Positions 2,792 to 58,694 of a stretch of DNA of 64,000 nt are shown here, piece after piece (position 1 is the first letter of the stretch; every line of letters begins with the position of its first letter). Source of the stretch: an uncultured archaeon. GTDB taxonomy: Archaea; Thermoplasmatota; Penumbrarchaeia; JASLWR01. The stretch covers positions 75,803 through 139,802 of the forward strand of contig CAYSHM010000006.1 of the NCBI GenBank assembly GCA_964430885.1, read 5' to 3'. Both the position numbers and the translations under genes were made by a program. The notes under the pieces were generated by a model that worked only from the letters and a program-made list of their open reading frames with translations, did no database searches and was not told the DNA's origin.

Positions 2792-3421
2792 TTGTCAGAA
2801 GGATTACAGTTGAGGACATTTATATTCATCGATCAGATGCAGCCGCAATTTGCAGCATATCAGGCTACTGTCGGGAGAGGTTATCTGCCAGTATCAGGTA
2901 TGGCTGCAATATATATTGAAACTGCACCCGGAATGCCCATCAATCGGGTTACGGATCTGGCATTGAAATATACAAGTGTGAGACCGGCAGAACTAATAGT
3001 GGAGCGAGCTTTTGGAATGTTGGAATTCCATCATGAATCCCAGTCCGAGGTCAGAACAGCGGGAAAAGCCGTTCTAGATGGCCTAGGTTTGGAGGAGATG
3101 GACAGATATAAACCAAAGGTTGTGACCAATGAGATAATCAAGAAAATAGATGATTACCAGTCAATGATAATCAATCGTTCCTGGAGGGGTATGATGATCC
3201 TTCATGATCATTCTCTCTTCATTATGGAGACTCAGCCTGCCGCTTATATAACCTATGCCGCAAACGAGGCCGAAAAGGCAGCAGATATCAATATTGTCGG
3301 CATCAGGGCAGCCGGTGCCTTTGGCAGGCTGTACATCAGCGGTTGGGAATCCGATGTCAGGGCCGCAGCGGATGCCGCTACGACGGCCATAGAGGGTATT
3401 GACGGTAGGGATGATTGGTAG
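2792..3421 (+). CDS. BMC shell protein, tandem-domain BMC-T (EutL/PduB-like permuted type)
   Basis: Two BMC-like halves; second half 'AAYITYAANEAEKAADINIVGIRAAGAFGRLYISGWESDVRAAADAATTAIEGI' fits the BMC fold pattern. TTG start preceded by AGGAGG at 2776-2781. Call from recalled family motifs, not alignment. Confidence 0.55.
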   Translation: MSEGLQLRTFIFIDQMQPQFAAYQATVGRGYLPVSGMAAIYIETAPGMPINRVTDLALKYTSVRPAELIVERAFGMLEFHHESQSEVRTAGKAVLDGLGLEEMDRYKPKVVTNEIIKKIDDYQSMIINRSWRGMMILHDHSLFIMETQPAAYITYAANEAEKAADINIVGIRAAGAFGRLYISGWESDVRAAADAATTAIEGIDGRDDW

Positions 3422-4190
3422 TTCCGCCGACCTAGGTGTCTTTATGGATCCCGACCGTCTCAGGACCATCGTTCTGGAGCAGGTACGGAGATATTTTCAG
3501 AACGAGGGAATGGAGTTCATTCGATATGAAAAGGATTCCGAAGAAGGATCTAAAGGTATATTGATAGTGATAAACCGAACTGATCCATCAATGGACCTTT
3601 TATTCAGCCAGATAAACAATCTGGTATCTGCTGGTCATAACATCACATTGATGAGCACCTCCGAAGTGAGGGCAATATTGGGCCAGCAGGGCTATTGGTC
3701 ACTTGACCGGATCACCTACTTGTCTATTGATGATACCCGAAAGGTCAACATGAAAATTGACGAATATTGGTCCCTGCTATTTCCGGTTATAGGTTACTCC
3801 CTGGCCGGAGAGATATCAGCCTTAAAAGATACAAATCCATTGGCGGATTTGGCTTTGACGGCCCTGCGCAGTGGATTGGATGTCGGAGTGGCAGTGGATA
3901 CCCTTGAGACTGTAGGGAAGAAGGCTCGTAGGCCAAAGCTGATCTCCGAGTCCACCAGGATACAGAAGGGCTTATCGGGAATAGGCGTGAGATTGGTAAC
4001 CCTGGAAAATATGGTCAACGAGATGTCCTTTGACAAACGGAGGTTCACAGGCCGAGTGCTGACAGAGGATATAATAAACAGCTATATGTCCCGTGGCGTG
4101 TTCGATATCAATGTGGATGAAGATACTGTGATCACGCCTTTGGCAAGGGAAAGGGCAAGGGAGTTGAACATTCGAATAAATATCATTTAG
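3411..4190 (+). CDS. BMC-locus protein of unknown function; N-terminal amphipathic helix may be an encapsulation peptide
   Basis: ORF 3399..4190 with in-frame ATG at 3411 and 3444. N-terminus 'DPDRLRTIVLEQVRRYF' is amphipathic; C-terminal 'GRVLTEDIINS...VITPLARERARELNI' loosely resembles a segment of the N-terminal domain of the DeoC fusion at 11266. No family recognised. Confidence 0.45.
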   Translation: MIGSSADLGVFMDPDRLRTIVLEQVRRYFQNEGMEFIRYEKDSEEGSKGILIVINRTDPSMDLLFSQINNLVSAGHNITLMSTSEVRAILGQQGYWSLDRITYLSIDDTRKVNMKIDEYWSLLFPVIGYSLAGEISALKDTNPLADLALTALRSGLDVGVAVDTLETVGKKARRPKLISESTRIQKGLSGIGVRLVTLENMVNEMSFDKRRFTGRVLTEDIINSYMSRGVFDINVDEDTVITPLARERARELNIRINII

Positions 4191-4238
4191 AAATTGAATT
4201 AATAGGATCAGATATCATAGATCAAGGAGTGTAAGAAA

Positions 4239-4532
4239 ATGAAATTGTGCAGAGTGGTAGGAAATGTGGTAGCCACTGTCAAGGACCGAAACATCGAGTC
4301 CTTCAAGCTGATGATAGTACAACCGGTGGATTTCAAGGAACAGAAGCCCTATGGAGAGCCTCTAGTGGCAATAGATGCGGTTGGTGCCGGCCAAGATGAG
4401 CTGGTCCTGATAGTTCAGGGAAGTTCCGGCAGAATGACCGCTATAACTGACCAGAAACCGTCCGACTGTACGATAATGGCAATTGTGGATTTTGTGACCT
4501 TAAACGGTGAACAGACCTTTGCAAAACGGTGA
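4239..4532 (+). CDS. BMC vertex (pentamer) protein, EutN/PduN/CcmL family (BMC-P)
   Basis: 97 aa; 'MKLCRVVGNVVATVK...AIDAVGAGQDELVLIVQGSSGR...AIVDFVTLNG' matches the EutN/CcmL pattern. ATG at 4239 with AAGGAG upstream. Confidence 0.85.
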   Translation: MKLCRVVGNVVATVKDRNIESFKLMIVQPVDFKEQKPYGEPLVAIDAVGAGQDELVLIVQGSSGRMTAITDQKPSDCTIMAIVDFVTLNGEQTFAKR

Positions 4533-4550
4533 TCGAGGGAGGTTTTAATA

Positions 4551-5981
4551 ATGGAGATCAGGCAGGATCAGATAAATAATATTGTGGATGAGATAGTTAG
4601 AAGAGTGGAGCTGGATATGAGCTATGGGAAACCGAACATGGGGCCAGCCAAGCAGGGAGGCACTACAGGTATCTACAGCACTATTGACGAGTGTATTGAG
4701 AAGGCGAAGAAGGCAAGAAAGTTTTTGATGTCAATGTCATTGGATCAAAGGCAGAAGCTGATAGATGCCATGAAAGGGGAGATATTGCAGAACGCAGATC
4801 CTCTGGCCAAGCTTGCTGTTGAGGAGACTGGATTGGGTCGGTACAAGGACAAGGTGAATAAGAACATTCTGGCTGCGACAAAGACCCCTGGATGCGAGGA
4901 CCTGCAGACTGAAGCCCAGACGGGCGACGACGGTCTCACACTGTACGAGATGGGGCCCTTTGGAATTATAGCTTCCATAACACCTACTACCAATCCCACG
5001 TCAACGATCACATGCAACTCCATCGGCATGATCGCTGCTGGAAACGCTGTTGTGTTCAATCCCCATCCGAGGGCTACCAAGACCAGTCTGGAGACCATAA
5101 GACTGCTGAACCGGGGTATTCAGTCGGCAGGAGGTCCTACTGATCTTATAACAACGGTTAAAAAACCAACAATTGACACAAGCCAGGCTCTTATGAACCA
5201 TAAGGAGGTCAATCTACTCTGCGTAACCGGCGGTGAAGGAGTGGTGCATTACGGTCTTACCAGAGGGAAAAAATGCATTGCAGCAGGTCCGGGAAATCCT
5301 CCTGTTTTCGTGGACGATACCGCTGATCTGATACGGGCGGGCAGGGATATTGTGGACGGAGCCAGTTTTGACAACAATATCCTCTGTATAGCTGAAAAAG
5401 AGGTTCTGGTATTCGAAAATGTGGCAGATAGGCTAATCTCTGAGATGAGGAAACACGGTGCACATCTGGTCAGCGGAAAGGAGATAGACCGGCTGATAGA
5501 TTTGGTATTCAATGATCCCTCGGGAGAGATCCCCCTGGTGAACACCAAATGGGTGGGTCAGGATGCAGGTAAGATACTGCGGAACATAGGAATAACCGAT
5601 AAGTTCAATGCGCGATTGATCCTTGCCGAGGTTCCTCACGATCATCCATTCGTGCTGGCTGAAATGCTAATGCCAATACTGCCCATAGTTAGGGTGAAAT
5701 CCATAGATGAGGCCCTTAAAATTGGTCTGAGAGCCGAACATAGATTCAGACATACCGCAGCTATGCATTCCACAAATGTGGACAATATGACCAAGGTGGG
5801 ACGGGCAATGGAAACCACAATATTCGTTAAGAACGCTCCATCCTATGCAGGTCTGGGTTTTGGAGGTGAGGGATACTGCTCCCTTACAATAGCCGGACCA
5901 ACCGGTGAAGGAGTTACAAGGGCGAGGAATTTTGCCAGATTGAGAAGATGTACGCTCAAGGATTCATTCAGAATTGTGTGA
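4551..5981 (+). CDS. CoA-acylating aldehyde dehydrogenase (PduP/EutE-like) with N-terminal encapsulation-peptide-like helix
   Basis: 476 aa; catalytic-Cys region 'DNNILCIAEKE', 'GPFGIIASITPTTNPT'. N-terminal 'QDQINNIVDEIVRRVEL' amphipathic helix followed by linker. GAGGGAGG upstream. Confidence 0.85.
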   Translation: MEIRQDQINNIVDEIVRRVELDMSYGKPNMGPAKQGGTTGIYSTIDECIEKAKKARKFLMSMSLDQRQKLIDAMKGEILQNADPLAKLAVEETGLGRYKDKVNKNILAATKTPGCEDLQTEAQTGDDGLTLYEMGPFGIIASITPTTNPTSTITCNSIGMIAAGNAVVFNPHPRATKTSLETIRLLNRGIQSAGGPTDLITTVKKPTIDTSQALMNHKEVNLLCVTGGEGVVHYGLTRGKKCIAAGPGNPPVFVDDTADLIRAGRDIVDGASFDNNILCIAEKEVLVFENVADRLISEMRKHGAHLVSGKEIDRLIDLVFNDPSGEIPLVNTKWVGQDAGKILRNIGITDKFNARLILAEVPHDHPFVLAEMLMPILPIVRVKSIDEALKIGLRAEHRFRHTAAMHSTNVDNMTKVGRAMETTIFVKNAPSYAGLGFGGEGYCSLTIAGPTGEGVTRARNFARLRRCTLKDSFRIV

Positions 5982-6028
5982 ATAATAATCGATAATAAAT
6001 ATTTCAGTCCAGCAGATCAGGTGAAAAA

Positions 6029-7390
6029 ATGGCTTCATTGGGAACGGATATGGTAAGGAACTCGGGGATAATAGGTGCGGGTGGTGCAGGTTTTCCTACC
6101 CATGTCAAGCTGGCAGCTAAGGTTGATTGTGTAATAGCCAATGGTGCCGAATGTGAACCCCTTCTCAAGGCGGATAAGCAGCTCATGGAGCATTTCCCTG
6201 AAAAAATACTGGATGGTATGAAAGCAGCCATGGATATGACGGGAGCCCAGAAAGGTATAATAGCTCTAAAGAGAAAGTATGCGGATGCGGTGTCCTCCTT
6301 CAGAACTCGATTGGCGGATGCTGTGAACGGTAGATATGAAGGAATATCCATATTTGAACTTGAGAACTTCTATCCTGCAGGCGACGAACAGGTCATGGTC
6401 TATGAAGTGTTAGGACGGGTAATTCCCGAAGGCGCCATACCATTGTCAGCAGGTGTTGTTGTGGACAATGTGGGGACCCTGGCCCAAATATCGGAAGCCA
6501 TTGAAGGAAAAAATGTTACCCATCGGTGGGTAACGGTCACTGGTGAAGTGGCCTACCCAAAGACCCTTTACATCCCTATAGGTACTTCTATAGAAAAGAT
6601 GCTTGGATTGTGCGGGGGTCCGACAATAACCAATTACAGGATATTATCCGGAGGTCCCATGATGGGACGTCTAGTAAACCTTACCGATAGTGTTCTGAAA
6701 ACCACCTCGGGTATCATAGTTTTCCCGGCAGATCATTATGTTGTGAAGGCTAAAACCCGCCCGGTGGAAGTGAATGTTAGGTATACTTTAGCGGCATGCA
6801 TTCAGTGCAAAATGTGCACTGATGTATGTCCCAGATTCAATCTGGGTAAGTATGTATGTCCGGACAGTGTGATGAAAGGCATCGCTTACGGAATACTTTC
6901 AAAACCGGAGGATATGACCACCGCATTCCTCTGCGTTGAGTGCGGATTATGCACCCATTACGGATGCCCTATGGGTTTGGACCCCTGCGGTATGATGGGG
7001 AAGGTCAAATCCGAACTTATTTCCGAAGGTATGACGAACCCACATTCAAGGACGGATCTGTCTGCCAGGGAATACAGGCCTTTCAGAAAGGTTCCCCTAA
7101 AAAGATTGATGGCCAGGATGGATCTTTTGAGATATGATGTACCGGCACCCATGGAGCTGAAGGACCTATCGAAGGTTATTACAGAAGTGAATATCCCTCT
7201 TAAACAGCACATAGGCGCGCCTTCGAAACCTGTTGTGAAAGTGGGAGATCAAGTGAAGAAGGGTGAACTGATAGCAGATATTCCAAAAGGTTCTCTGGGG
7301 GCACGGTATCATTCCAGCATTAACGGTGAAGTAACAGGTGTGGATTCCTGCATCAGTATTAGAGCAAAGAAAATCGGAGGAATTGAATGA
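6029..7390 (+). CDS. PduS-like RnfC-family Fe-S flavoprotein (electron-transfer partner of PduT)
   Basis: 'GIIGAGGAGFPTHVKLAAKVDCVIANGAECEPLLKADKQLM' nucleotide-binding motif; two Cys clusters 'CIQCKMCTDVCP' and 'CVECGLCTHYGCP'; PduS-type C-terminus. Confidence 0.8.
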   Translation: MASLGTDMVRNSGIIGAGGAGFPTHVKLAAKVDCVIANGAECEPLLKADKQLMEHFPEKILDGMKAAMDMTGAQKGIIALKRKYADAVSSFRTRLADAVNGRYEGISIFELENFYPAGDEQVMVYEVLGRVIPEGAIPLSAGVVVDNVGTLAQISEAIEGKNVTHRWVTVTGEVAYPKTLYIPIGTSIEKMLGLCGGPTITNYRILSGGPMMGRLVNLTDSVLKTTSGIIVFPADHYVVKAKTRPVEVNVRYTLAACIQCKMCTDVCPRFNLGKYVCPDSVMKGIAYGILSKPEDMTTAFLCVECGLCTHYGCPMGLDPCGMMGKVKSELISEGMTNPHSRTDLSAREYRPFRKVPLKRLMARMDLLRYDVPAPMELKDLSKVITEVNIPLKQHIGAPSKPVVKVGDQVKKGELIADIPKGSLGARYHSSINGEVTGVDSCISIRAKKIGGIE

Positions 7391-7944
7391 GAGAGTCTAT
7401 AGGTCTCATGGAGTTCAACAGCATTGCAAAGGGTATTGAGGTGACGGATGTTCTTCTGAAGGCTTCCGAGGTGGAACTCATATTCTCATCGCCGGTGTGT
7501 CCTGGAAAGTATCTGATAATGATCTCTGGTGAGGTGGAGGCTGTTAAGAATTCACTGGGAAAAGGAGCCGACATATCGGATGGTTTCCTCATCGATCAAA
7601 GTGTAATACCTCAGGTTCATGAAAAGGTGTTCCCAGCCATAGCTGGGACCACACTGCCCGAGGTGATGGGGGCCATTGGTGTCATAGACTGCTATTCTTC
7701 GGTTTCGGCAGTAGTGGCAGCCGATAAAGCGGTGAAATCCGCCGATGTAGATCTGCTGGAGATTCGATTGGCCAGGGCGTTGGGAGGAAAGGCCTTTGTC
7801 ATAATAACAGGTGAGGTTGCCGATGTGAGGGCAGGTGTCGATAACGGAGTTGAGTCCATAAAGGAACACGGACTGCTGCTGGGCACAGTGGTAATTCCGT
7901 CCCCCCACCAGGACCTACTGGAAACGTTGATAGGATCGAGATGA
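7387..7944 (+). CDS. PduT-like tandem BMC-T shell protein with conserved Fe-S ligand Cys38
   Basis: 185 aa, two BMC domains; 'SIAKGIEVTDVLLKASEVELIFSSPVCPGKYLIM' parallels PduT '[34 protein letters not shown]' as recalled. Start ATG overlaps PduS stop (ATGA). Confidence 0.85.
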   Translation: MRESIGLMEFNSIAKGIEVTDVLLKASEVELIFSSPVCPGKYLIMISGEVEAVKNSLGKGADISDGFLIDQSVIPQVHEKVFPAIAGTTLPEVMGAIGVIDCYSSVSAVVAADKAVKSADVDLLEIRLARALGGKAFVIITGEVADVRAGVDNGVESIKEHGLLLGTVVIPSPHQDLLETLIGSR

Positions 7945-8041
7945 TCAGATCATAAATTCATATCACGATTAATTAAATTAATTAATTGATGAATAATTTG
8001 AAGAATATAATCAAGAAGATGAAAAATAGAAGTTGATTGAA

Positions 8042-8548
8042 ATGAGAATTTGCAGGGTAATAGGCAATCTGGTATCCACATGCAAGATACCTGATCACGA
8101 AGGTTTCAAGATACTGGCGGTTCGTGCTGTCGATCTTCACGGCAGAATGCATGGTGAGACCTTTCAGGCTATAGATTGCGCCCAGGCAGGTGTGGGTGAT
8201 TTTGTGCTCGTGATAGAGGAAGGAGGCTCCTGCAGTCAGGTGATGAGCGGAGTTAAGTCGCTAACCCCCAAGGGTGACCGGGTGGCAGTCAACAAGTCCA
8301 TTCTTGCTGTTGTGGATTATATTGAGGCTGATGGAGAGCTCAGAAGGCTGGAGCAGACAGCAGAGATGGAAGAGGATGGAGGAAAGAAAAAATTAAGAAG
8401 TACCAAGGTTAAAAGAAAGACCTCCAAGGCTACTGGAAAAAAGGGTAAAGAAAAAAAAAGTGAAAAAACGTCAGGAAAAAATTCCCGCAAACCTGCTAAA
8501 ACCTTGGCAACAAAGAAAGGCAAGGGCGGTAAGAAGAAGAAGGGTTGA
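8042..8548 (+). CDS. BMC vertex protein (EutN/CcmL family) with about 60-aa lysine-rich C-terminal extension
   Basis: 'MRICRVIGNLVSTCK...AIDCAQAGVGDFVLVIEEGG' BMC-P core, then tail 'GKKKLRSTKVKRKTSKATGKKGKEKKSEKTSGKNSRKPAKTLATKKGKGGKKKKG'. ORF-track start 8033 is TTG; first ATG at 8042. Confidence 0.8.
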   Translation: MRICRVIGNLVSTCKIPDHEGFKILAVRAVDLHGRMHGETFQAIDCAQAGVGDFVLVIEEGGSCSQVMSGVKSLTPKGDRVAVNKSILAVVDYIEADGELRRLEQTAEMEEDGGKKKLRSTKVKRKTSKATGKKGKEKKSEKTSGKNSRKPAKTLATKKGKGGKKKKG

Positions 8549-8554
8549 TAGATT

Positions 8555-9469
8555 ATGTCAGAAGACGAGCTCAGAAAGTTAGTAGAAAACATGGTTCGAT
8601 CCATGCTGGAATCCGGTTCTGTGGAGATACAGAAGGGAACTGCTCTAAGGACCCAGGGAGATATCTCAAGGCCTACCAACAATTATTTTAATGATCAGAT
8701 GGAGGGTAATGCCCGGTATGTGGTTGCAGCCAATTGGAAGATGAACATGACCACCATAGAGGCCAAGGAATTCGCTATGCAGATAAGGGCCTTAGGAGAG
8801 GAAATTTCCAATAGTAAAAGGGATGCAGTGGTCTGTCCTCCTATTTATTTGGCTCCTCTTCTGAAAACAGCGTTCATGGGGACGGGTATCCGGTTGGGCG
8901 GTCAGAATATGCACCATGAGACCAAGGGTGCTTATACCAGCGAGATATCGCCTCTAATGCTTAAGGATGCGGGTTGTCAATATGTGATAATTGGACATTC
9001 TGAAAGGAGACATATATTTGGTGAAAAGGACCATCATATCAATATGAAGGTGAGGTCAGCTTTCAATCATGGCCTTGTACCTCTTTTCTGCGTTGGCGAG
9101 ACCGAGAAGGAACGGGAGAGCAATGCTACCTTCAGGGTTGTCAGGAAACAATTGAAATTGGGCCTCTATAAGACAAGCTCCAAGCAATCCGGCAGGCTGA
9201 TAATCGGTTATGAACCGGTTTGGGCAATAGGCACTGGGAGAAATGCTACTCCGGCTGACGCCCAAAGGGTACATGCATTCATCAGGGAGGTTCTGACGGA
9301 GATCTACGATTTCCCCACGGCCAAGAATATCAGGATTCTCTACGGCGGAAGCGTTACACCTGATAATGCTTCAGGTCTTATAGCCAAAAAAGATATCGAC
9401 GGTTTCCTGGTGGGGGGTGCTTCTCTCACCGCTTCCAAGTTTATGAGCATAGCGGAGGTGTGCAAATGA
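8555..9469 (+). CDS. tpiA: Triosephosphate isomerase, bacterial type, with about 50-aa N-terminal extension (putative encapsulation peptide)
   Basis: 'AANWKMN', 'IGHSERR', 'YEPVWAIGTG', 'YGGSV' motifs. N-terminal 'EDELRKLVENMVRSMLE' amphipathic helix precedes the catalytic core. Confidence 0.85.
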   Translation: MSEDELRKLVENMVRSMLESGSVEIQKGTALRTQGDISRPTNNYFNDQMEGNARYVVAANWKMNMTTIEAKEFAMQIRALGEEISNSKRDAVVCPPIYLAPLLKTAFMGTGIRLGGQNMHHETKGAYTSEISPLMLKDAGCQYVIIGHSERRHIFGEKDHHINMKVRSAFNHGLVPLFCVGETEKERESNATFRVVRKQLKLGLYKTSSKQSGRLIIGYEPVWAIGTGRNATPADAQRVHAFIREVLTEIYDFPTAKNIRILYGGSVTPDNASGLIAKKDIDGFLVGGASLTASKFMSIAEVCK

Positions 9470-9945
9470 GCCAGGATATGAGGAAGATATTGATAGGTAG
9501 TGATCACGGGGGATTTGAGTTAAAGGAGATTATTAGACAGTTCCTCAAGGACCAGGGATACCGGGTTGTTGATTTTGGTTGCTATTCGCCGGACCCTGTT
9601 GACTATCCAGATATTGCCTTTTTGGTCTCTCAGGGGGTGTGTTCGAATCCTAATTCAATTGGTATAATGATAGATGGGGTAGGTGTTGCCAGTACAATGG
9701 TTGCAAACAAGATTCCCGGGATCAGGGCCGCCCTTTGCTGGAATCAGTTCAGCGCACACAATGCACGTGAGCACAACAATGCAAATATGCTCGTCCTAGG
9801 GGGTAGGGTAATCGGTGATATATTGGCCAGGAGCATTGTGAAGGAATTCCTGGAAACAGAATTTGCCGGCGGACGGCACGCACGGAGGGTAGACAAGATA
9901 ATGGCGATTGAAGCCAAATATCTGAGGTCTATTCAGGAAAAATGA
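9466..9945 (+). CDS. rpiB: Ribose-5-phosphate isomerase B (RpiB/LacAB family)
   Basis: 'KILIGSDHGGFELKE', 'MLVLGGRVIG', 'FAGGRHARRVDKI'. ATG at 9466 overlaps tpiA stop (ATGA); alternative ATG at 9478. Confidence 0.8.
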   Translation: MSQDMRKILIGSDHGGFELKEIIRQFLKDQGYRVVDFGCYSPDPVDYPDIAFLVSQGVCSNPNSIGIMIDGVGVASTMVANKIPGIRAALCWNQFSAHNAREHNNANMLVLGGRVIGDILARSIVKEFLETEFAGGRHARRVDKIMAIEAKYLRSIQEK

Positions 9946-10047
9946 GTTAAAAGTTAACAGAGTTAGGATAAATTTATTAGTTCAGTGTAATAATAATATA
10001 AAACTTAATAATATAGAGTTGAGAGACGAATCTTGAGGAGTGAACCA

Positions 10048-10335
10048 ATGTATATCGGTAAAGTAATGGGAACCGTGGTGGCCACAAGGAAGATAGATAC
10101 CCTTAAAGGGATCAAACTGCTCCTAATACAGCCCTTGGATGATGATATGAAACCCTCGGGAAGGTTACTGGTGGCCGGGGATGCCCAGGGAGATACAGGA
10201 GAAGGTGATGTGGTATATTTGGTCACCAAGAAGGAAGCCTGTTTCCCCTTCGGTGGTCTGACCCCCCTTGATCACGCTGTGGCGGGTTATATTGATGATT
10301 ATCATATTGAAGAATCTTTAAAAGAGGGGAAATAA
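10048..10335 (+). CDS. BMC vertex protein (EutN/PduN/CcmL family), third paralog
   Basis: 'MYIGKVMGTVVATRKIDTLKGIKLLLIQP...LVAGDAQGDTGEGDVVYLV'. ORF-track TTG start at 10033; first ATG at 10048 after GAGGAG. Confidence 0.8.
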   Translation: MYIGKVMGTVVATRKIDTLKGIKLLLIQPLDDDMKPSGRLLVAGDAQGDTGEGDVVYLVTKKEACFPFGGLTPLDHAVAGYIDDYHIEESLKEGK

Positions 10336-10640
10336 GCATAACATGGACACTGCGGACAACCATCCAAGGCTCTATTTACCTGGAAGAAATATTTGGACAG
10401 TAAATAATAATATAGGAATAAGGTAAGATTAGTGTGTTAATTTAATCCTGTTACCAGGATGTGAATTCATAATAGTATTGGATAGGGCATGGGTATGAGT
10501 AAAGGTAAAAAGCAATAGATGAAAAATTCGAAATCAGCTATTGAAATGTATAATCAATCAAAAATTATTGAGAAGTAGTAGTCAAGGATTATTACAATGG
10601 AGATACATTGAATCCAAAACAAATCAAGGAGGAAAAATAA

Positions 10641-10934
10641 ATGAGAGATCTACAGAAAATTGCATTGGGAATGATTGAGACAAAGGGAGAGATAGGAGCT
10701 ATAGAAGCTGCAGATGCCATGGTAAAGGCAGCCAAAGTGACCCTTATCGGAAAGGATTTCGTCGGCGGCGGCTATGTGTGCGTTATGGTCAGGGGAGAGG
10801 TTGGGGCTGTCAAGGCGGCAATAGACGCCGGTGGAGCCGCTGCAGCCAGGGTCGGAGAGCTTGTCTCAGTTCACGTTATTCCCAGGCCCCACGAGGAAGT
10901 AGAGGATGTTCTGCCTTCCATTGATAGGGATTAA
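10641..10934 (+). CDS. BMC hexamer shell protein (BMC-H, PduA/EutM/CcmK-like)
   Basis: '[26 protein letters not shown]...[33 protein letters not shown]' matches the canonical BMC-H pattern closely. AAGGAGG upstream. Confidence 0.9.
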
Positions 10935-11265
10935 AGTAATACTGCATTAAATTGTTATTTGCAGGGATGGGCTGAAATATTCGCCTGCTCCCTTAGAGAA
11001 CAGGATTTGCATTTGGAGATTTATCCTCAAAATAATAATGATATTCTTTTAGGAAGATCATCTGAATGTTTTATCCTGCAATTTACTCAATAGGATTAAA
11101 TCGAATTGATATCTATGGTGATCATGAAAGCAAAGGCCATATGTCAATTACTTCCAGATTGAAATGCGGGTAGTATTGTTACCTTTGATATCAAGATCCG
11201 GGATATGGAATGTATGGCCTAAACACCACGAAAAAATTCAAGAATAGTGATAATGAAGTGATACA

Positions 11266-12705
11266 ATGGAAAGGGAGGAAGCGATCAAAAGGATAACCGA
11301 AGAGGTTCTTGCAAGAATTAGGGGCGCATCTTCGGGTAATTCTTTGAATACCTCACAGGGATCTGCCGCGGATCAATCCGAAAAGGGACGGAGTGCACCT
11401 TATTTAGCCTCTGGGGGAAAATCCATTATTATGATACTCAGCGGAGACCGGACTATTGAGGATCTGAGAGAGGACATCAGTTCCATATGCAGTAGCCAGA
11501 AGGTTGAAATGATAGTGGTATCCGATTGGGCTCTTAGGTCCTTCAACATCTTTAAACTCAAGGGTTTAGCTCCTGGGATAAAACTGCTCCAGGAGGGGGA
11601 CATATTGGGCAGCAAGACAATATCAGACATCTTATCAGACGTTGACTCGGTCTATGTTCTCGACCTGGATATTCCCAGTGCTTCGCGTATTGCAGATTTT
11701 GCTCCAGTGCTGCCTGCTGAAAGGGTTATCACAGGGGCAATTATTTCCGGTAAAAGCGTTATCTGTTCACATGCACTTCTGAGCCCAATGGCAGGGGAGC
11801 TAACTCCTCCATGCGCCCGTGAGGCCATTTCCGCAGTTGAGAAGAAGCTCGTGGCCGTCGGTGTTGCCATGCTTGGTTCGGGGACTTCTTTCAGTGATAA
11901 TGAAGCAGTGGAACAGGCCCTAGCCCGCTGCCCGGCGGGTGAAGGAGAATGTATTGGATGCGGATTGTGCGTGAACCTGAACACAGCAGGCGTGGAGAAC
12001 ATCTTTTCAGCCGGAGCCCAGAGGATTAGTACGGCTACCGGATTGGATACCCCCAATCCAGATATGGCTCGTATGATAGATCACACGCTGCTGAAACCCG
12101 CTGCCACAGAGGATGATATCCGGGAGCTATGTGATGAGGCTAGAAGATACAATTTCGCTACGGTATGTGTTAATCCATCCCATGTAGCCCTTGCAGCAAG
12201 GGAGCTGAGAGGAACGGATGTTGGTATCACCACTGTCATCGGTTTCCCCCTGGGAGCAACAACCCATACCGCAAAGTCCATTGAGACCCGGGATGCAATA
12301 GCCAATGGCGCCAATGAGATAGATATGGTGGTTAACGTTGGCGCTCTGAAGGCTGGCAACGATGATCTGGTAAAAAGGGATATTGCGTCAGTGGTGAACG
12401 CTGCAGGCAATGATGCTATTGTCAAGGTGATTCTTGAGACCTCTCTGCTGAATGACGAGGAGAAGGTCAGGGGCTGCCTGCTCTCAAAGATGGCCGGGGC
12501 GGATTATGTGAAGACATCCACTGGTTTTGGTCCTGGCGGCGCTACCGTAGAGGATATCCGCTTAATGAGGCAGACTGTGGGCCCAGATATGGGGGTTAAG
12601 GCCTCTGGAGGGATCAGAAATACAGACGATGCCAATGCCATGCTTGAAGCAGGTGCTTCAAGGATAGGTGCTAGTGCTTCAGTTGCCATTGTTAAGGGCG
12701 CATGA
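11266..12705 (+). CDS. deoC: Deoxyribose-phosphate aldolase (DERA/DeoC) fused to about 265-aa N-terminal domain of unknown function with Cys cluster and encapsulation-peptide-like N-terminus
   Basis: C-terminal 'IDHTLLKP...VCVNP...[12 protein letters not shown]...VKASGGIR' are DeoC hallmarks. N-terminal '[15 protein letters not shown]' amphipathic helix; Cys cluster '[14 protein letters not shown]'. Confidence 0.85.
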
Positions 12706-12818
12706 GCCAAGGATCTCTTAAATATCCATTCCAGGTATACTAACTACCAAATGGAAGTCGCCTAGTTGCATGAAACTAGTGCAAGCTGTAGTAAATAATG
12801 CATGAAGGGATTGGATAA

Positions 12819-14678
12819 ATGAATGAAAAAGACCTCCAAAGGGACGATGGTCCCGCTACAGGGAATACCATGGAAAATGAAGAGGAGTTTTCATACACTT
12901 CCGGTGAAATAACCGGCAAATCTCCCATGGAGCAAACTCTGGATCAAGGTCTTCAATTTCTCGAATACCTCCAAAAGCGGAAGGAAACATACAGGGCGGT
13001 CAAACTATATTTTCATAATGACATGGACGGTTTTGCTTCCTCACTTCTTGTGAACCATCTCCTGACAAAGATCGGTTATGAAATTCCTCTGGAGAACATA
13101 CACCCCTTGGCTCATGTCAACCTGAATAATGTGGCAATAGATGAACAGCATCTATTTTTCTTTGTAGATATACGGCCCCCTAGCTCAGCTTTCAAAGAAT
13201 CAAGTCTGGCGGGAGAGGATAGACCTTTCATGGAAAATGTTTTCTGTGTGGATCATCACACAACCCTGGATTCACCCCTTTCACCCCATGCGAATTTCTT
13301 TCTTTACAACTATGAGATCGATGATATTCTTCCATCCACTGCCACCTTCCTGATGTATTATCTTGTAATGCTTGAGAAAGGGATCAGGGGAACCTACGGT
13401 GCCCTCATGAGGGAATGGATGACGAACCCCCCCATGAACACAAGATATCTTCTGCTACAGGCCACCATTGCTGATCATCTTCATCTTCTGTCGGAAAAGC
13501 TACCCAATAATCCCCTGAGGTATCTATCCAACCTGCTTATTGAGGATATGGATGCCTATGTGCTCCTATCAATAACCACCTCACTGCTGCTGGGAGGGGA
13601 CGGCGGACATATGGATATGTTCAGGCAACTATATTCCGAAGCCCTGGGGAATATCAATCAGGAATTAATGGCCCAGAAATTAGAGAACAATCTTTCTCAG
13701 GTACTTTCGCTTTTTGAATTCGTGGATATTCTCATGAAGAAGCGTAAGGAATTCATCGATGATATGGCCAAGGATATGGATGGGGAGATCCAGAGAACAG
13801 AAGCTGGGATCAGCGGAATGACGGATACCCTGAATAACTATAACACCGCAGCCGATAAGATCAAGGAGGAACTCTCATTCCAGAATATAGCTATGGGGAA
13901 ACTGAAGGATCTTCGAAATGATTACATGGGTATCAGGGAGCAGATGACGCGTTTAGAGAACCAGATAGGTATTGAGTTGGGAAGGCTTGAAAAACAGAAA
14001 GTTCTCAGATACCATCTTGTGGCTGAAGGAGACATCAATTTATCAGTTTTCCTGCCACCCCAGAACAATGATCAGGTTAGAGGCATACTGTCATCACTTC
14101 TATTTTATCACGGTAATAACAACATCATCATAGAGGAGAAGACATCCAAGGCCGTGTGGAGTTCAAGGGGTTATGAGGGAAAGGAATTGGAAAGCTTCCT
14201 GACAACAGTATCGGTGGACATGGAGAAATTGATGGAACTGAAGGAACATCAGGAGGCGGTGGAGGAATTTAAGGGAGATCCAACCATAATTGAGAAGCTT
14301 GAATTGGATGAGAGGTCCCCTCCTTTGATATCTGTGGAGAACCGATATATCGGACAGATGGGTGGCAGGAGTAGGATATTCGGCGGTATCATTACCAGCA
14401 ATGTCACCCTTGATGCTAGCACTTTGGTTCAAGACAGAGGAGGTAATGAACTACAGTCCATACTTACGGTTCCTCACCAGCGGTTCTGGATATCAACTAT
14501 ACAAGCAATAAAGGAAAAATTCAAGGAGAGCCAGTGGTTCACAGTACAGGTGGAAGGGGGTGCAAGCTTGGGCGAGATACTCTCAGACCAGTGGGAGCTG
14601 CTGCTGATGCATTTCATGGGCAATAGGATGTCATACAGGATTTTTGAACTGAAAAGCAATGGTCAAGATGGCATCTGA
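12819..14678 (+). CDS. DHH-family phosphoesterase-like protein with central coiled-coil
   Basis: 'HNDMDGFAS' and 'VDHHT' resemble DHH motifs I and III of RecJ/NrnA-type phosphoesterases; rest unassigned. Confidence 0.45.
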   Translation: MNEKDLQRDDGPATGNTMENEEEFSYTSGEITGKSPMEQTLDQGLQFLEYLQKRKETYRAVKLYFHNDMDGFASSLLVNHLLTKIGYEIPLENIHPLAHVNLNNVAIDEQHLFFFVDIRPPSSAFKESSLAGEDRPFMENVFCVDHHTTLDSPLSPHANFFLYNYEIDDILPSTATFLMYYLVMLEKGIRGTYGALMREWMTNPPMNTRYLLLQATIADHLHLLSEKLPNNPLRYLSNLLIEDMDAYVLLSITTSLLLGGDGGHMDMFRQLYSEALGNINQELMAQKLENNLSQVLSLFEFVDILMKKRKEFIDDMAKDMDGEIQRTEAGISGMTDTLNNYNTAADKIKEELSFQNIAMGKLKDLRNDYMGIREQMTRLENQIGIELGRLEKQKVLRYHLVAEGDINLSVFLPPQNNDQVRGILSSLLFYHGNNNIIIEEKTSKAVWSSRGYEGKELESFLTTVSVDMEKLMELKEHQEAVEEFKGDPTIIEKLELDERSPPLISVENRYIGQMGGRSRIFGGIITSNVTLDASTLVQDRGGNELQSILTVPHQRFWISTIQAIKEKFKESQWFTVQVEGGASLGEILSDQWELLLMHFMGNRMSYRIFELKSNGQDGI

Positions 14679-17009: not shown

Positions 17010-17288
17010 ATGAAGTTGCCAAGAAGGATAAAAACGTACTGTCCGTTCTGCAAGGTCCACACGGAGCATAAGGTGGAAAATGTGAAGAAGAAGAAGGCTT
17101 CTGAGCTGAAATGGGGACAGAGACGTTTCAGAAAGGTAATGAGAGGGTACAGGGGATTTCCCAGACCCAAACCCGAAGGCAGGGAAAAACCAACCAAAAG
17201 AATATATCTACGAAAAAGGTGCACCCAGTGCAATAAAGCTCATCAGAGCAAATGTTTCAGATCAGGGAAATTTGCGTTCAAGGATTGA
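17010..17288 (+). CDS. rpl44e: Ribosomal protein L44e (eL42)
   Basis: '[15 protein letters not shown]...KRCTQCNK' zinc-ribbon ribosomal protein pattern; archaeal/eukaryotic-specific. Confidence 0.85.
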
Positions 17289-17293
17289 TAATT

Positions 17294-17509
17294 ATGCATA
17301 TACAAAAACAGACCAAGTATTTGGATACACCTAACAGCAAATACTTAAAGGTGAAATGTCACGACTGCATGAACGAGCAGGTAATATTCAACAAGGCCAG
17401 TAATGTTGTGAAATGTTTGGTTTGCGGGGCTACTTTAGCAGAACCCACCGGCGGAATGGCCAAGGTAAAGAGTAAGATATTGGCCGTTGTTGACAGAAAG
17501 TACAGATGA
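17294..17509 (+). CDS. rps27e: Ribosomal protein S27e (eS27)
   Basis: '[36 protein letters not shown]' matches the S27e C4 zinc-finger pattern. Alternative ATG at 17252. Confidence 0.8.
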
Positions 17510-18297
17510 AGGTAGAGATTTATATGGCAAACCGATTCGAATGGCCTTTGGAAGATGAACTGGTTGTATGTACCGTAAAAAGGGTTCTTGATTATGGTGC
17601 TTTTGTTACCCTGGATGAATATCAGGATAAAGAAGGCTTCATCCATATTGCTGAGATCGCTTCCGGTTGGGTCAAATATATCGGCAACCATATTAGAGAA
17701 AAGGCCAAGGTTGTTACCAAGGTCCTTCGTGTGGATCCTCGAAGGGAGCATATAGATCTCTCCTTGAAGAGGGTCAATGACCACCAGAAGAGGGCAAAGA
17801 TACAGGAGTGGAGAAGAAATACCAAGATGCTGAAGCTCTTCGAACTTCTCTCAAAAAGAATAGAGAAAGAGCTGAAATTGTGTTATAGAGAGTTTGGTTT
17901 CTCACTGATGGAGAAATACGGCTCCCTTTATAACTCCTTTGAAGCGGTATCTATCAATAACAATGTCCTTGAAGAGGACGGTTTCCAGGGAGACTGGGTG
18001 GAGCATTTTGTTGATATTGCACGGACCAATATAACTCCCCCCTATGTATCCATTTCAGAGAAAATATACCTATTCTCTCCTGCTCCCAATGGAGTGGAAC
18101 ATGTTAAGGAAGCTATAGGTTCGGTGATCAAAAATTCCGAGGAAAACGTCAAGATCACCTATGTAGGGGCGCCGGAATACCGGATCTCCGTCATCGCCCG
18201 CGATTATAAAAATGCGGAATCAGTAATGGCTAATACTGCAGGAGATGTTATTGATAAGATAACATCAACGGGCGGTTATGGTTCATTCGATAGATAA
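17506..18297 (+). CDS. eif2a: Translation initiation factor 2 alpha subunit (aIF2-alpha)
   Basis: S1 domain '[41 protein letters not shown]'. ATG overlaps the S27e stop. Confidence 0.8.
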
Positions 18298-18323
18298 ATA
18301 ATTTTTTCAAGAGGGCATGGATC

Positions 18324-18503
18324 ATGAAGCATTTTTTATTCAAGTGTTCAGAATGTTCAGTCTATACTATGGACCAACAATGCCCAGAATGCGGTAATAC
18401 AGCTTGGGCTGTGGAACCCCCTCGTTTTTCACCACAGGACCGTTGGGGGAAATACCGCAGAAAGTTATTACTTAACTTGGAGAATGATGAGAATGATGGA
18501 TAG
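18324..18503 (+). CDS. nop10: H/ACA ribonucleoprotein component Nop10 (59 aa; absent from ORF track)
   Basis: Hand translation from ATG 18324: MKHFLFKCSECSVYTMDQQCPECGNTAWAVEPPRFSPQDRWGKYRRKLLLNLENDENDG, stop TAG 18501-18503. Zinc ribbon plus 'PPRFSP' motif; canonical position after aIF2-alpha. Confidence 0.7.
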   Translation: MKHFLFKCSECSVYTMDQQCPECGNTAWAVEPPRFSPQDRWGKYRRKLLLNLENDENDG

Positions 18504-19260
18504 TGTGATCTTCCAAAAGGAAAATGTTCCCGATTGCCAGAATGCGGTATTGATAGAGGGATTACCGGGAATAGGACGGGTAGGTCAGATAGCAGCAGAT
18601 TATTTGGTGGAAAAATTGAATTCGGAAAAATTTATCACAATTTATTCACCCTTCTTTCCTCCTCAGGTTATGGTTGATGATGAGGGTCTGGTTCATCCCA
18701 TGATTCAGGAAATGCATCACTGCATCACTAAATCAGGACGTCATTTACTGTTCTTAACCGGAGACTATCAGGGTTTGACTGGCGAAGCCCAGTATGCTCT
18801 CAGTCATGAAGTATTGAAACTCGCAAGCTCCATGGATGTGAAAGAGATCATAACTCTAGGTGGTTACGGTGTTAGAAAGATACTTGAAGAACCCAGGGTA
18901 CTCGGTGCTGCCACTTCAAATGAAATTGTCTCCAAAATGGAGGAATTTCAGGTTGTGTTCAAAAGCGAACACCCCACGGGCGGTATTGTAGGAGCATCCG
19001 GTATATTGCTTGGATTGGCTCCGCTGTTTGATCTTGAAGGGGTTTGCCTAATGGGTGAGACCCATGGTGCCTATCCAGATCATATTGCTGCAAAGATGAT
19101 ATTGAAGGTGCTGGATGCATATCTGGATCTGGATCTTGTTTATGATGATCTGGATGAACCCTCTCCCGCCCTGGAGGCCCTGAAGGCCCAGATAAAGGAA
19201 ATGGATCAGGAAGCAGAAAAAGGTTACAAGGAAGAACAAGAACTGAACTATTTTGTATGA
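18484..19260 (+). CDS. PAC2-family proteasome assembly chaperone
   Basis: 'NAVLIEGLPGIGRVGQIAADYLVEKL' N-terminal motif. Start uncertain (ATGs at 18484/18493/18496); overlaps nop10 3' end. Confidence 0.65.
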   Translation: MMRMMDSVIFQKENVPDCQNAVLIEGLPGIGRVGQIAADYLVEKLNSEKFITIYSPFFPPQVMVDDEGLVHPMIQEMHHCITKSGRHLLFLTGDYQGLTGEAQYALSHEVLKLASSMDVKEIITLGGYGVRKILEEPRVLGAATSNEIVSKMEEFQVVFKSEHPTGGIVGASGILLGLAPLFDLEGVCLMGETHGAYPDHIAAKMILKVLDAYLDLDLVYDDLDEPSPALEALKAQIKEMDQEAEKGYKEEQELNYFV

Positions 19261-19426
19261 TTTACCTTGATCTTTTATGAATTACCGATGATCTCTCACC
19301 GGACTCTATTTCTTTCTTTCCAGCAGCTCTCTTTCTGAAAAGGATTCCAAAAATATTATTAGATGTAAGTTCGATGTAGTGTAGCATAGTAATTTTTTCA
19401 AGCTGCATAAGTATGTACATAGGGTT

Positions 19427-28166: not shown

Positions 28167-31100
28167 CTATTGGCGAGGCGGACGGGGAGGTAAATTATCA
28201 CTGCTGTTTTCAGTAGGCTCTTCTTCATTGGCCAGATCGCCCGTGAGCTCCTCCTCTTCGGATGACGGCCCATTCTCTTCTCCGTCGGTCCCTTCAGCAG
28301 TCCCTTCCTGGTTATCCATACTGCTCCTGTTATCATCAAATTCATCCTCTGCTTCGAATTCATCCTCTGCTTCGAATTCATCCTCTTGAAGCACTTCTTC
28401 CTCCAACATCCTATCCTCGGTTTTCCCCTTGTCCTCCTTTTTGGTTTTCATTATGTAAATGGCCATGGCGGTCCCTACTCCTAGAATGAGAATCACTAAA
28501 GCTATCAATATAATCCAGAGAGTAGTATTTCCCGAACCGGGATCCTTGTCCGAATCGTCATCGTCATCATCTGATGCAGAACCGAAATATGATGTTGGAA
28601 AGGAATCAATATTGTGCTTCCATGTCTTTGTTTTTCCGTCATACTCGGCAGTTATCTCGGTTCCATCTGGTATGCCGGTATATCCAATTAGGCTGAATGT
28701 AACCTTTCCATCCTTACCAGTGGTACCAGCATAGTCCCGATTTCCCAAACTGAACGTAACGATGACACCCTCAAGCGGTTTGCTTCCATCCATGAAAGGT
28801 CCCATTTTAACATCGGCGCCTGATATATCAAGATACATGTCTCCCAGATCCACATCTGCACCTTCTATCTTGAAGGATATTGTTTTGTCATCATAACCAT
28901 CAGCAGATAGGACAAGATCATATGAACCGTTGGGTAGTGATGCAGTGAACACACCATTGGTATCAAGGGTGATATTGATTCTATCCTGACCTTTTGTTAT
29001 ATAACCCTGGGCATTGACTGGGGCAACCTTTCCGCCAACGGAATACTTGGTCAAGGCGGTTGTAGTGAATTGGAATGTGAGGTCACTGTCCAATTCTTGA
29101 CCGTCAATGTCTTTTACACCTTGGAGGTCTATCTGATAGATAGTATCCTCTTCGAAACCATCTTTTGGTGTGAAGGTGAAATTGTATTTATCGATCCATG
29201 TGCTTCCTTGGATGAAGGGAGTGATAATGACGGTGTCACCCAGAGTGAAAGAAGTGTAATCCATCATTTTAGTGAATTCGACTATTATGGTAGAATTGAG
29301 CGGTATGTCGACACTTCCGTCCAATGGGTAAGTTGTAACAACCATTGGCAGCTCTAATTCCACAACAGATAGAGCGTATTCAGAATCAATGGTATAGGTT
29401 GAGGAACCGTCATCCACAAGTACCTGAAGGTAGTATCTCCCGATCTCCAGATCCGATGTGTTCCACGAATAACTTTCCTCGAATGGATCAAGATATGACA
29501 GTAAGAACAAAGTTGTGTTATCTCTCTCTTCATAATAATAAAGGGTAAGGTTTGTATCAGAAATTGGACCCGGATCTCCGCCTATATTCAAATGGACAAT
29601 GAATTTCTCCTTTCCTTCATATATGGTAAAATTTTCATCTTTTAATGAATCGAATTGGAAGGTGAATGGCACCGGCGGAGCAGTTACCTCTCCGGGACTC
29701 ACAGCTCCTATCTTCCAGTCATCCTTTGAATTGGTGTCGAGATAATTCACTCCCGCTCCTCCGGTCAATCTGCTGAGGCTCTGTCCCTGGGAAATGTTGG
29801 TCACATTGATACATGACGAAGTTAGATTGTTATCCCAGTCGGCCCCGTCTCTCAGTGAACTGATATCCAATATTTCATGGGCGGTCAAGGTTCCCTCCGA
29901 CTGCCAGGCTACAGCATCATGAACCAAATCTTCGGTATCTGCCAATATCACTTGGTCTCCGCCGGTACTTAGCACTCCATTGCTTGCGCTTGTATATATG
30001 TCGATTATGCCGTCGCCATTCCCTTCCATGCTGCCGTTTTCGCTCGCCATGGTATCATTGTTAAAGTGTATGAGCAGATATTCATCACTAGCAATGACAG
30101 TTCCATCGAAGAAATGGTCGGTATTCCCATCAATGTCATCTATCCACCATCCTGTTATATCCGCACCATCCCCCAGATTTCCATCATCCACGCAGAAAAT
30201 CTCAACCCAATTATCACCTGTTTCCGGTTTGAACATGACCTCCGTTATAAGCAGGATAGGTTCAGGTGCTGGCTCGGCAATCGTTATTGTAAACAAACTG
30301 CTGAATCTTGGCTGATTTGTTCCATCCTCGGCAGCAATCCTGAACTTAATAACACTTCCCAATGCCTGCCCGGGGATACTTGCACACCAGTTATTATCTC
30401 CTGCTATTTCATCTATCCCCGTTCCATCATCCTTCATAATTATTTCATTTTGGTCAGCATCATTGAGGGTCCAGTTGATCACAGCCCTTGTCACACTCAC
30501 ATCGTCAGTGATCCTTGCTGAGATGTTCAGATCTGTCATTGGGGCAAGTGTATGATTGTCGGGTAAAGGATCAAGAATAATATCAGTTATCAATGGCAGC
30601 TCATCGGCCAGGTCTCTGAAGATTCCGGGTTCGGGAATTTCAAGTATATGCCAGTCGTTTCTGGAGTTTGAGTCTGTTTCTCCTCTGCTCCTGGTTATAC
30701 TGAAACCCGCGGATATATTATCCGAATCCACGCAGGCACCTGTGTTGTTGGCATCCCACTGGCCCTTAGCAACAGTATAATTCAGGTCGTCCTTTTCACC
30801 TGCTGAGAGAGTATCATTATAAGCCCAGCACACAGCGTCCATTAGGAATCCGTCCTGATCAAAAAGTATTACTTGATCCCCCTGATAGCTAAGGCGGGTA
30901 TTGCTCCCTTCAGTATATGTGTCCAGGATATTATCGCTGTTTCCGTCATCTACAGAAATCTCGTCTTCCATATCCGGGGAGTTGTAATGCATTAAGAGGA
31001 TATCGCCTGTGTGAACCAAGGCATTGCCGAATGTTTTATCCCTGCTTCCGTCTTCATCATCAAGACCCCATCCAAGAATGGAATTCCCATTTCCGCTATT

Positions 31101-58524: not shown

Positions 58525-58694
58525 AATGGCCTACCCCCATTTATCAATTTAGCCTGATGAATTTGGATTAAAAATTGAATTTATTTATTATTCAAGATAT
58601 TATATATATATTTATACCTGTAACTATTTCATATTCAGTGTTGGTATCATAACCTGAACGGTAATTAAAATTGAGATTTTACAGGTGTGTACGG

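Follow-up and report, generated by a model that had tools for sequence, protein, structure and literature searches.

The microcompartment gene cluster

The window analysed here, a stretch of 64,000 nucleotides (nt) from an uncultured archaeon (GenBank assembly GCA_964430885.1, contig CAYSHM010000006.1, positions 75,803 to 139,802 of the forward strand), carries the genes for a microcompartment in one operon-like cluster at positions 2792–12705 of the + strand. Four of the encoded proteins begin with a short amphipathic segment, and these segments (here called tags) are very probably encapsulation peptides (EPs) of a sugar-phosphate-utilising (SPU-type) microcompartment of a Thermoplasmatota (JASLWR01-like) archaeon. 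The analysis was wholly computational, and the proteins are known here from their sequences and from predicted models. The genes of the cluster are listed below with the basis of each assignment; BMC stands for bacterial microcompartment, aa for amino acid residues and AF2 for AlphaFold2.

2792..3421, + strand: BMC-T(dp)-type shell protein, 209 aa (Pfam BMC match; annotation PF27545 CsoS1D_N + PF00936)
3444..4190, + strand: 'DUF' cargo protein, 248 aa, no Pfam match (start-site analysis, AF2, Foldseek, family search)
4239..4532, + strand: BMC-P pentamer, P1 (Pfam EutN_CcmL, E 1.8e-27)
4551..5981, + strand: acylating aldehyde dehydrogenase (AldDH), 476 aa (Pfam match from aa 44; PDB alignments; orthologues)
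6029..7390, + strand: PduS-like metabolosome NADH dehydrogenase, MNdh (Pfam Complex1_51K, SLBB, Fer4_17 and RnfC_N)
7387..7944, + strand: BMC-T(s) trimer with a CPGK Fe-S motif, partner of MNdh (two BMC domains; role according to PMC11626177)
8042..8548, + strand: BMC-P pentamer, P2, with a Lys-rich tail of ~70 aa (Pfam EutN_CcmL; tail read in translation)
8555..9469, + strand: bacterial-type triosephosphate isomerase (TIM, also TPI), 304 aa (AF2; PDB TIM alignments; homologue lengths)
9466..9945, + strand: ribose-5-phosphate isomerase B, RpiB (Pfam LacAB_rpiB, aa 10–147)
10048..10335, + strand: BMC-P pentamer, P3 (Pfam EutN_CcmL)
10641..10934, + strand: BMC-H hexamer, the only one at the locus (Pfam BMC, E 9.4e-27)
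11266..12705, + strand: Flav-DERA ('DeoC') fusion with C-terminal deoxyribose-phosphate aldolase (DERA), 479 aa (PDB DERA alignments from aa 266; hhalign; alignments)

The shell genes comprise one H, one T(s), one T(dp) and three P, and a search for a second BMC open reading frame (ORF) between 9900 and 11300 found only the BMC-H gene at 10641–10934. DERA and an acylating AldDH are encoded beside BMC-H, BMC-T and BMC-P genes, which is the combination that defines SPU loci, and the catalytic motifs of TIM, AldDH and DERA are readable in the translations.

Amphipathic N-terminal segments

The initial annotation had attributed a short N-terminal amphipathic helix to AldDH, TIM, the DeoC fusion and an unknown protein, the last being the DUF protein. 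All four peptides are present and contain neither Pro nor Gly. The range given for them, 4551–11330, holds AldDH, TIM and the N-terminus of the fusion, while the unknown protein lies outside it. N-termini were scored by the largest Eisenberg hydrophobic moment of any Pro/Gly-free 14-mer starting within the first 12 residues, and 45 likely genes of the window were compared, the starts of the other 41 being taken mechanically. AldDH (0.77), TIM (0.72), Flav-DERA (0.59) and DUF (0.51) occupy ranks 1–4; the probability that one specified foursome does so is 1/148,995. The gene ranked fifth reaches 0.50, a negligible gap from the fourth, and all others score ≤0.40. As background, 4.2% of the Pro/Gly-free 14-mers in window proteins reach 0.55 and 0.3% reach 0.70. 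Amphipathicity is kept in the orthologues of the tagged proteins, with moments of 0.45–0.90.

The tags are predicted helices of 17–19 residues followed by flexible tethers of ~12–34 residues. Signal peptides and transmembrane anchors were rejected as explanations, the segments being charged and amphipathic, unlike the hydrophobic transmembrane matches in the window. A sequence-level EP family spanning the enzymes was ruled out by a search with a profile hidden Markov model (HMM) of TIM tag helices, in which the best score outside TIM, 1.5 bits for DUF, is not significant. As judged from the sequences, the four tags resemble one another in physicochemical character alone, as EPs commonly do. 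The pattern ΦxxΦΦxxΦΦxxΦ matches the N-termini of AldDH, TIM and Flav-DERA; it was designed post hoc and is of descriptive use only.

Pairwise identities of helix, linker and core were computed over five Thermoplasmatota loci, and linker lengths were compared across the related loci:

TIM: helix 0.59, linker 0.23, core 0.70; linker of 22–34 aa
Flav-DERA: helix 0.68, linker 0.13, core 0.64; linker of 19–33 aa
DUF: helix 0.47, linker 0.13, core 0.44; linker of 13–18 aa
AldDH: helix 0.53, linker 0.58, core 0.80; linker of 19–21 aa

The linker is thus poorly conserved in TIM, Flav-DERA and DUF, AldDH being the exception within the lineage; the AldDH linker differs in two other loci, the Hodarchaeales locus L006 and locus L011. 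Between the window and the related metagenomic loci L004, L005 and L007 most codons have changed, many of them synonymously, yet the hydrophobic positions of the helices are kept. The tag regions contain no stops or frameshifts, and linker lengths change in whole codons only. Because the hydrophobic positions persist across many synonymous codon changes, the tag segments are evidently translated.

In AldDH, QDQINNIVDEIVRRV corresponds to aa 5–19. The helix spans aa 3–21 (nt 4557–4613), the linker extends to ~aa 40, and the core begins at ~aa 31–44. Alignments start at aa 44 for Pfam, at aa 31 for the compartment enzyme 5jfl, and at aa 44–47 for non-compartment AdhE, whose PDB alignment begins at aa 45, and other acylating dehydrogenases.

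The triosephosphate isomerase

The sequence EDELRKLVENMVRSML occupies aa 3–18 of TIM, and the AANWKMN motif lies at aa 58–64. Pfam and PDB homology to TIM starts at aa 54–56 of the query; ~50 aa had initially been placed ahead of the core. The helix at aa 3–20 (nt 8561–8614) is followed by a disordered tether at aa 21–54 (nt 8615–8716) and by the barrel from aa 55. In the AF2 model, built from an alignment of 21 sequences, helix 3–20 has a pLDDT of 74–79, residues 22–51 fall below 50, and the barrel begins at residue 55.

Among the matches listed, 16 TIM homologues of 287–304 aa carry the extension and ~100 of ~250 aa are without it. The extended TIMs with readable context (window, L004, L005, L006, L007 and L008) are all encoded among shell genes. 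In L011 and L012 the tag LLDEQELRKKVEAIVREVV lies upstream of a mis-called start (TIM of L011 at 6455–7363). The Hodarchaeales locus L006 further contains a second TIM gene (18585–19346, − strand), 8 kb from the compartment TIM, whose product is 48% identical to the latter and has no extension; upstream of it no coding potential for a hidden tag was found. To judge from these sequences, the second TIM offers an internal control for the compartment specificity of the tag.

The TIM tag is common to the Thermoplasmatota loci, a Hodarchaeales type II locus and a PTAC-containing SPU locus, as far as the sequences compared indicate; therefore, it appears to have been inherited with the gene, and TIM is thus probably luminal in archaeal compartments. 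Targeting of a TIM to a compartment, initially regarded as unusual in itself, is no rarity: TPI occurs across SPU loci, and an EP on SPU4 TPI has already been predicted (PMC11585597).

The DUF protein and the Flav-DERA fusion

The DUF protein carries DRLRTIVLEQVRRYF at its N-terminus. Its start, placed at 3411 in the initial annotation, is most likely ATG 3444, which has AGGTG 5 nt upstream, is chosen by two gene callers (248 aa) and agrees with the M-[DE]-P beginning of the homologues. The helix comprises aa 3–20 (nt 3450–3503) and the tether aa 21–32, and the first strand of the domain is at aa 38. The AF2 model, based on 41 sequences, gives helix 3–20 with a pLDDT of 82–89, residues 21–32 below 50, and then an alpha/beta domain. 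Foldseek matches the model core to dodecameric flavoproteins that bind FMN, UbiX and EpiD among them (E values as low as 3e-6, TM ~0.6 on the target), and the predicted fold of DUF is that of a UbiX/EpiD-like flavoprotein.

Among 1.84 billion representative proteins, a HMMER profile search identified just 141 relatives of DUF at E ≤1e-3. A word-indexed protein search gave 3 matches only, and when the genome collection was scanned with the DUF alignment, only 3 loci were confirmed out of 599 pattern matches. Nearly all of the 40 relatives inspected are ~250 aa long, begin with an amphipathic helix and carry 'TIVTPLAxxxAxELGIxI' at the C-terminus. When these and the window protein were compared with Pfam (41 sequences), PF02441 Flavoprotein matched 7 and PF15953 PDU_like 5, and weak sub-threshold matches to PF02817 E3_binding were seen at the C-terminus of 10. 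A distant relative with both termini is encoded between PTAC and EutN in a Cytobacillus (Bacillota) EUT locus (L009). Because this relative lies in an EUT locus, the DUF family looks compartment-specific on sequence grounds.

The C-terminal motif V/I-I-T-P-L-A-R-x-R/K-A-x-E-L-x-I is found at 4101–4187 of the window, 4400–4486 of L006 and 10180–10273 of L009; besides DUF, the Hodarchaeales compartment citrate synthase and the Cytobacillus EUT-locus protein end with it. The motif may be a second, C-terminal interaction module in compartment cargo.

In the Flav-DERA fusion the 15-residue peptide initially reported is present at aa 4–18. The helix (aa 3–19, nt 11272–11322) is followed by a tether (aa 20–52), a flavoprotein-like domain, a four-Cys motif and DERA from ~aa 266, the position at which solved DERA structures begin to align. 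Comparison of the DUF family with the N-terminal ~200 aa of the fusion by hhalign gave a probability of 99.5% and E 1e-22, with the match running from residue 1 and including the helix. By this profile comparison, DUF is a paralogue of the 'Flav' domain of Flav-DERA, and the tag is common to both. The tag, taken initially for an extension of DeoC, therefore heads a flavoprotein-like domain of ~200 aa. Because DUF is paralogous to the fusion N-terminus, tag included, the tags of these two proteins go back to a single origin, and the sequences point to three independent origins rather than four.

The four-Cys motif, C-x6-C-x2-C-x2-C, separates the flavoprotein-like domain from DERA at aa 222–235 (11929–11970). 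Its four Cys do not vary among seven loci, and the motif looks like a ferredoxin-type Fe-S or metal site.

Automated gene calls miss EP-bearing N-termini at these loci, namely that of DERA in L006 and that of TIM in L011 and L012. The mis-called DERA of L006 has its true ORF from 12118 (12118–13590) and shows the same EP-Flav-DERA architecture.

Host and other features of the locus

Downstream of the locus lie genes for L44e, S27e, aIF2-alpha, Nop10 and PAC2, with Cbf5 farther along; archaeal marker genes are found especially at 17010–19260 and 47167–48174. The nearest named relatives of the Cbf5 are from Thermoplasmatota/Thermoplasmata metagenome-assembled genomes, at ≤60% identity. A scan with DUF (one genome per species) led to JASLWR010000064.1, 'Thermoplasmatota archaeon ETNP2_MAG_1'. 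The metagenomic loci L004, L005 and L007 are syntenic with the window in compartment genes and flanking archaeal genes alike, and the window itself was found in marine metagenomes. By gene content the whole window is archaeal, and a 'bacterial' microcompartment locus sits in an archaeal chromosome; the initial annotation had missed that the host is an archaeon. An archaeal host, an extra T(dp), a single BMC-H and no PTAC are also the characters of the JASLWR01 type.

RpiB and the PduS-like MNdh have no N- or C-terminal extension in any locus compared. This agrees with the preprint finding on Hodarchaeales ribose-5-phosphate isomerase (RPI), which has no predicted EP yet interacts with the shell (PMC12747264). 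For MNdh, T(s) is the expected docking site (PMC11626177).

Phosphotransacylase (PTAC, PF06130) was not found among the locus proteins scanned (2792–14678), and phosphotransacylase, alcohol dehydrogenase and citrate synthase are all absent from the locus at 2792–12705. Acetyl-CoA and CoA may pass via the T(dp) pore.

The tail of P2, Lys-rich, disordered and ~70 aa long, is missing from the P2 orthologues (109–120 aa) of four related Thermoplasmatota loci and may have been gained independently in the window lineage. Similar K/R-rich tails of Hodarchaeales P2 are reported as DNA-binding.

Two ORF-free gaps of ~300 nt (10336–10640 and 10935–11265) flank BMC-H in an operon that is otherwise tightly packed. 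A second BMC-H is kept elsewhere in the related locus L007, and the gaps may hold promoters or lost-gene remnants.

A 619-aa protein with a weak DHH-family match (E 6e-4) is encoded at 12819–14678, after Flav-DERA, and holds this place in 5/5 Thermoplasmatota loci. A PDB sequence search with it gave only a spurious coiled-coil match and no solved relative. It may supply the pathway as a phosphoesterase or nuclease, or may simply be a conserved neighbour.

Elsewhere in the window are tandem paralogues of 1403 aa with Lamin-tail and Big_5 domains (28167–32378 and 32546–36757, − strand), a WD40-repeat protein of 1304 aa (54610–58524, − strand) and an amidohydrolase-NUDIX fusion (58671–60323, + strand) that may be linked to nucleotide catabolism. 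Scans of the window for tRNAs and Rfam families gave no matches.

Identity of the tags

An EP is defined as a short terminal amphipathic helix with a poorly conserved linker that is absent from non-BMC homologues (Kinney 2012; Aussignargues 2015; PMC4594438). The four segments are read as EPs because they fit this definition. They are predicted to be helical, are amphipathic, stand on a variable tether, are missing from homologues outside compartments and are linked to shell genes; they also match the EPs tested on orthologous Hodarchaeales proteins (PMC12747264). The proposed secondary structure is borne out by the AF2 helices at 3–20 of TIM and DUF, and the Flav-DERA helix aligns with that of DUF. 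The extensions are indeed extra with respect to non-BMC homologues, alignments to which begin at aa 54–56 in TIM, aa 44–47 in AldDH and aa 266 in DERA.

Several points weigh against this assignment. Shell binding and encapsulation are inferred for these proteins from established EP biology and the Hodarchaeales experiments, and the pathway is inferred too. The helix in AldDH is deduced from a Pro/Gly-free i, i+3, i+4, i+7 pattern, and that in Flav-DERA from a sequence pattern and homology to the DUF helix. The AldDH linker, fairly conserved in the lineage (0.58) with a fixed length of 19 aa, is less typical of an EP. The DUF helix is moderately amphipathic, and its moment (0.51) is barely over that of the next gene (0.50), which makes it marginal; DUF, moreover, has no non-compartment homologue to serve as a control for absence of the tag. 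When the HMM made from 14 TIM tag helices was run against 186 window ORFs, TIM alone scored (15.6 bits). Finally, no experimental test of an EP on any TPI was found in the literature.

That the extensions are spurious and stem from picking the first possible start codon, with TIM for example beginning at Met49 and the upstream part untranslated, is hardly credible. A Met does stand at aa 49, just ahead of the barrel, and gene callers misplace starts at these loci in both directions. However, the TIM helix is conserved as protein across homologues of 47–62% identity that differ at many synonymous sites and have no stops or frameshifts, and linker lengths vary in whole codons only. ATG 8555 follows the P2 stop by 6 nt, whereas a start at Met49 would leave a gap of 150 nt; the same argument applies to AldDH, Flav-DERA and DUF. 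Scarcely more probable is that generic amphipathic helices, serving for instance membrane association, oligomerisation or regulation, happen to stand on clustered genes. Such helices are common, as the fraction of window 14-mers that reach a moment of 0.55 illustrates, but the four proteins hold the top four N-terminal ranks of 45, the segments are confined to shell-linked homologues, each has the tether architecture, and orthologous peptides have been functionally tested (PMC12747264).

A role of the helices mainly in cargo–cargo coalescence before shell closure, without docking to the shell and with DUF as a putative multivalent hub, is improbable, though less so than either of these. EPs are reported to aggregate core proteins besides binding the shell (PMC11585597). 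The DUF core resembles dodecameric UbiX/EpiD structures by Foldseek, such folds usually being trimers or dodecamers, and the N-terminal helix and the C-terminal TPLA..ELGI motif are kept by nearly all of the 40 DUF members inspected. Nevertheless, EP-bearing enzymes of Hodarchaeales were recruited by shell particles alone (PMC12747264), and coalescence would in any case modify the EP model, not replace it.

Proposed function and significance

If the helices act like those of PduP and PduD and like the EPs tested from Hodarchaeales, their hydrophobic faces would bind shell tiles and/or other cargo, and the tags would draw AldDH, TIM, Flav-DERA and DUF into the lumen during shell closure. There, DERA would cleave deoxyribose-5-phosphate to acetaldehyde and glyceraldehyde-3-phosphate, and AldDH would convert the acetaldehyde to acetyl-CoA with formation of NADH. 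MNdh would reoxidise the NADH, the electrons leaving through the Fe-S cluster of T(s). Conversion of glyceraldehyde-3-phosphate to dihydroxyacetone phosphate by TIM would keep the luminal concentration of the former low and pull the aldolase reaction forward. RpiB and MNdh, being untagged, would enter by binding tagged cargo or the shell.

The tagged flavoprotein-like module, which consists of the EP helix, a tether and a probably oligomeric UbiX/EpiD-like fold, might conceivably be a core-organising scaffold and not a redox enzyme, although we think this rather unlikely. Free DUF, with its peptide-binding-like C-terminal TPLAR..ELGI motif, would then serve as a multivalent hub on which cargo nucleates and to which untagged RpiB or MNdh is recruited, and fusion to DERA would draw the signature enzyme into it as well. 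If true, DUF would be the metabolosome counterpart of carboxysomal CcmM or CsoS2, and the role could be general, given the distant relatives with the same termini in Bacillota EUT loci (L009).

The pfam02441 proteins have been suggested as a possible external electron acceptor of the MNdh/T(s) relay (PMC11626177); a tagged, luminal flavoprotein-like protein would be a poor candidate for that function.

The locus is a clear new example of a mechanism already described, and the results, mostly a confirmation of recent reports, leave the field unchanged. Modestly new may be the documentation of EPs in Thermoplasmatota loci, the shared TIM tag and the paralogy of DUF and Flav including the tag; supplements of the published papers may already tabulate some of this. 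The window represents a clean second archaeal lineage, the Thermoplasmatota, whose microcompartment cargo carries the full bacterial-style targeting system, and this supports transfer of compartments as working units, tags included.

Comparison with known systems

Like the canonical EPs of PduP, PduD, EutC and PTAC, the tags are terminal amphipathic helices of ~18 residues with a hydrophilic variable linker, are absent from non-BMC homologues and show no sequence conservation between enzymes. They differ in that the carriers include TIM and a flavoprotein-like domain, and in that the AldDH linker is conserved in the lineage.

In SPU BMCs, DERA and AldDH encoded beside shell genes form the signature (Dwyer et al., Commun Biol 2024; PMC11585597). 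These bacterial loci often encode RPI, a PduS homologue and TPI as well; N-terminal EPs are predicted on AldDH, DERA and the TPI of SPU4, and the study cautions that the annotated start of a gene frequently leaves out the EP (PMC11585597). The window likewise has DERA, AldDH, RPI, a PduS homologue and TPI, and missed starts recur in L006 and L011. However, bacterial RPI carries an N-terminal EP and a linker of ~75 aa (PMC11585597), whereas the RpiB of the window does not. The extension of bacterial DERA is ~70 aa (a helix and two strands), as compared with 265 aa in the window (EP, flavoprotein-like domain and four-Cys motif). The window also lacks PTAC, and its host is an archaeon. PTAC is present in almost all SPU1, SPU4 and SPU7 loci and in Hodarchaeales archaeal microcompartments (AMCs), and is not universal.

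AMCs have been described in Hodarchaeales, the order JASLWR01 (Thermoplasmatota) and SpSt-1190 (Du et al., bioRxiv Nov 2025; PMC12747264). In Hodarchaeales, GFP fusions were drawn to shells by the EPs of Flav+DERA, AldDH and DUF, and recruitment was lost when the EPs were deleted (PMC12747264). The main text of the preprint is without an EP analysis of Thermoplasmatota loci, and TPI is not among its EP-bearing enzymes (PMC12747264). The window further differs as a distinct lineage, its TIM being 57–62% and its DUF 30–37% identical to those of relatives, and in the Lys-rich tail of P2, which the four related Thermoplasmatota loci do not have. As in the AMCs, the window encodes Flav+DERA, AldDH, DUF, RPI, MNdh with a CPGK T(s) and three P, together with TPI as in type II. 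JASLWR01 loci have an extra T(dp), have lost one H gene and contain no PTAC according to the preprint (PMC12747264), and the layout of the window, with its extra T(dp), single H and no PTAC, is the same.

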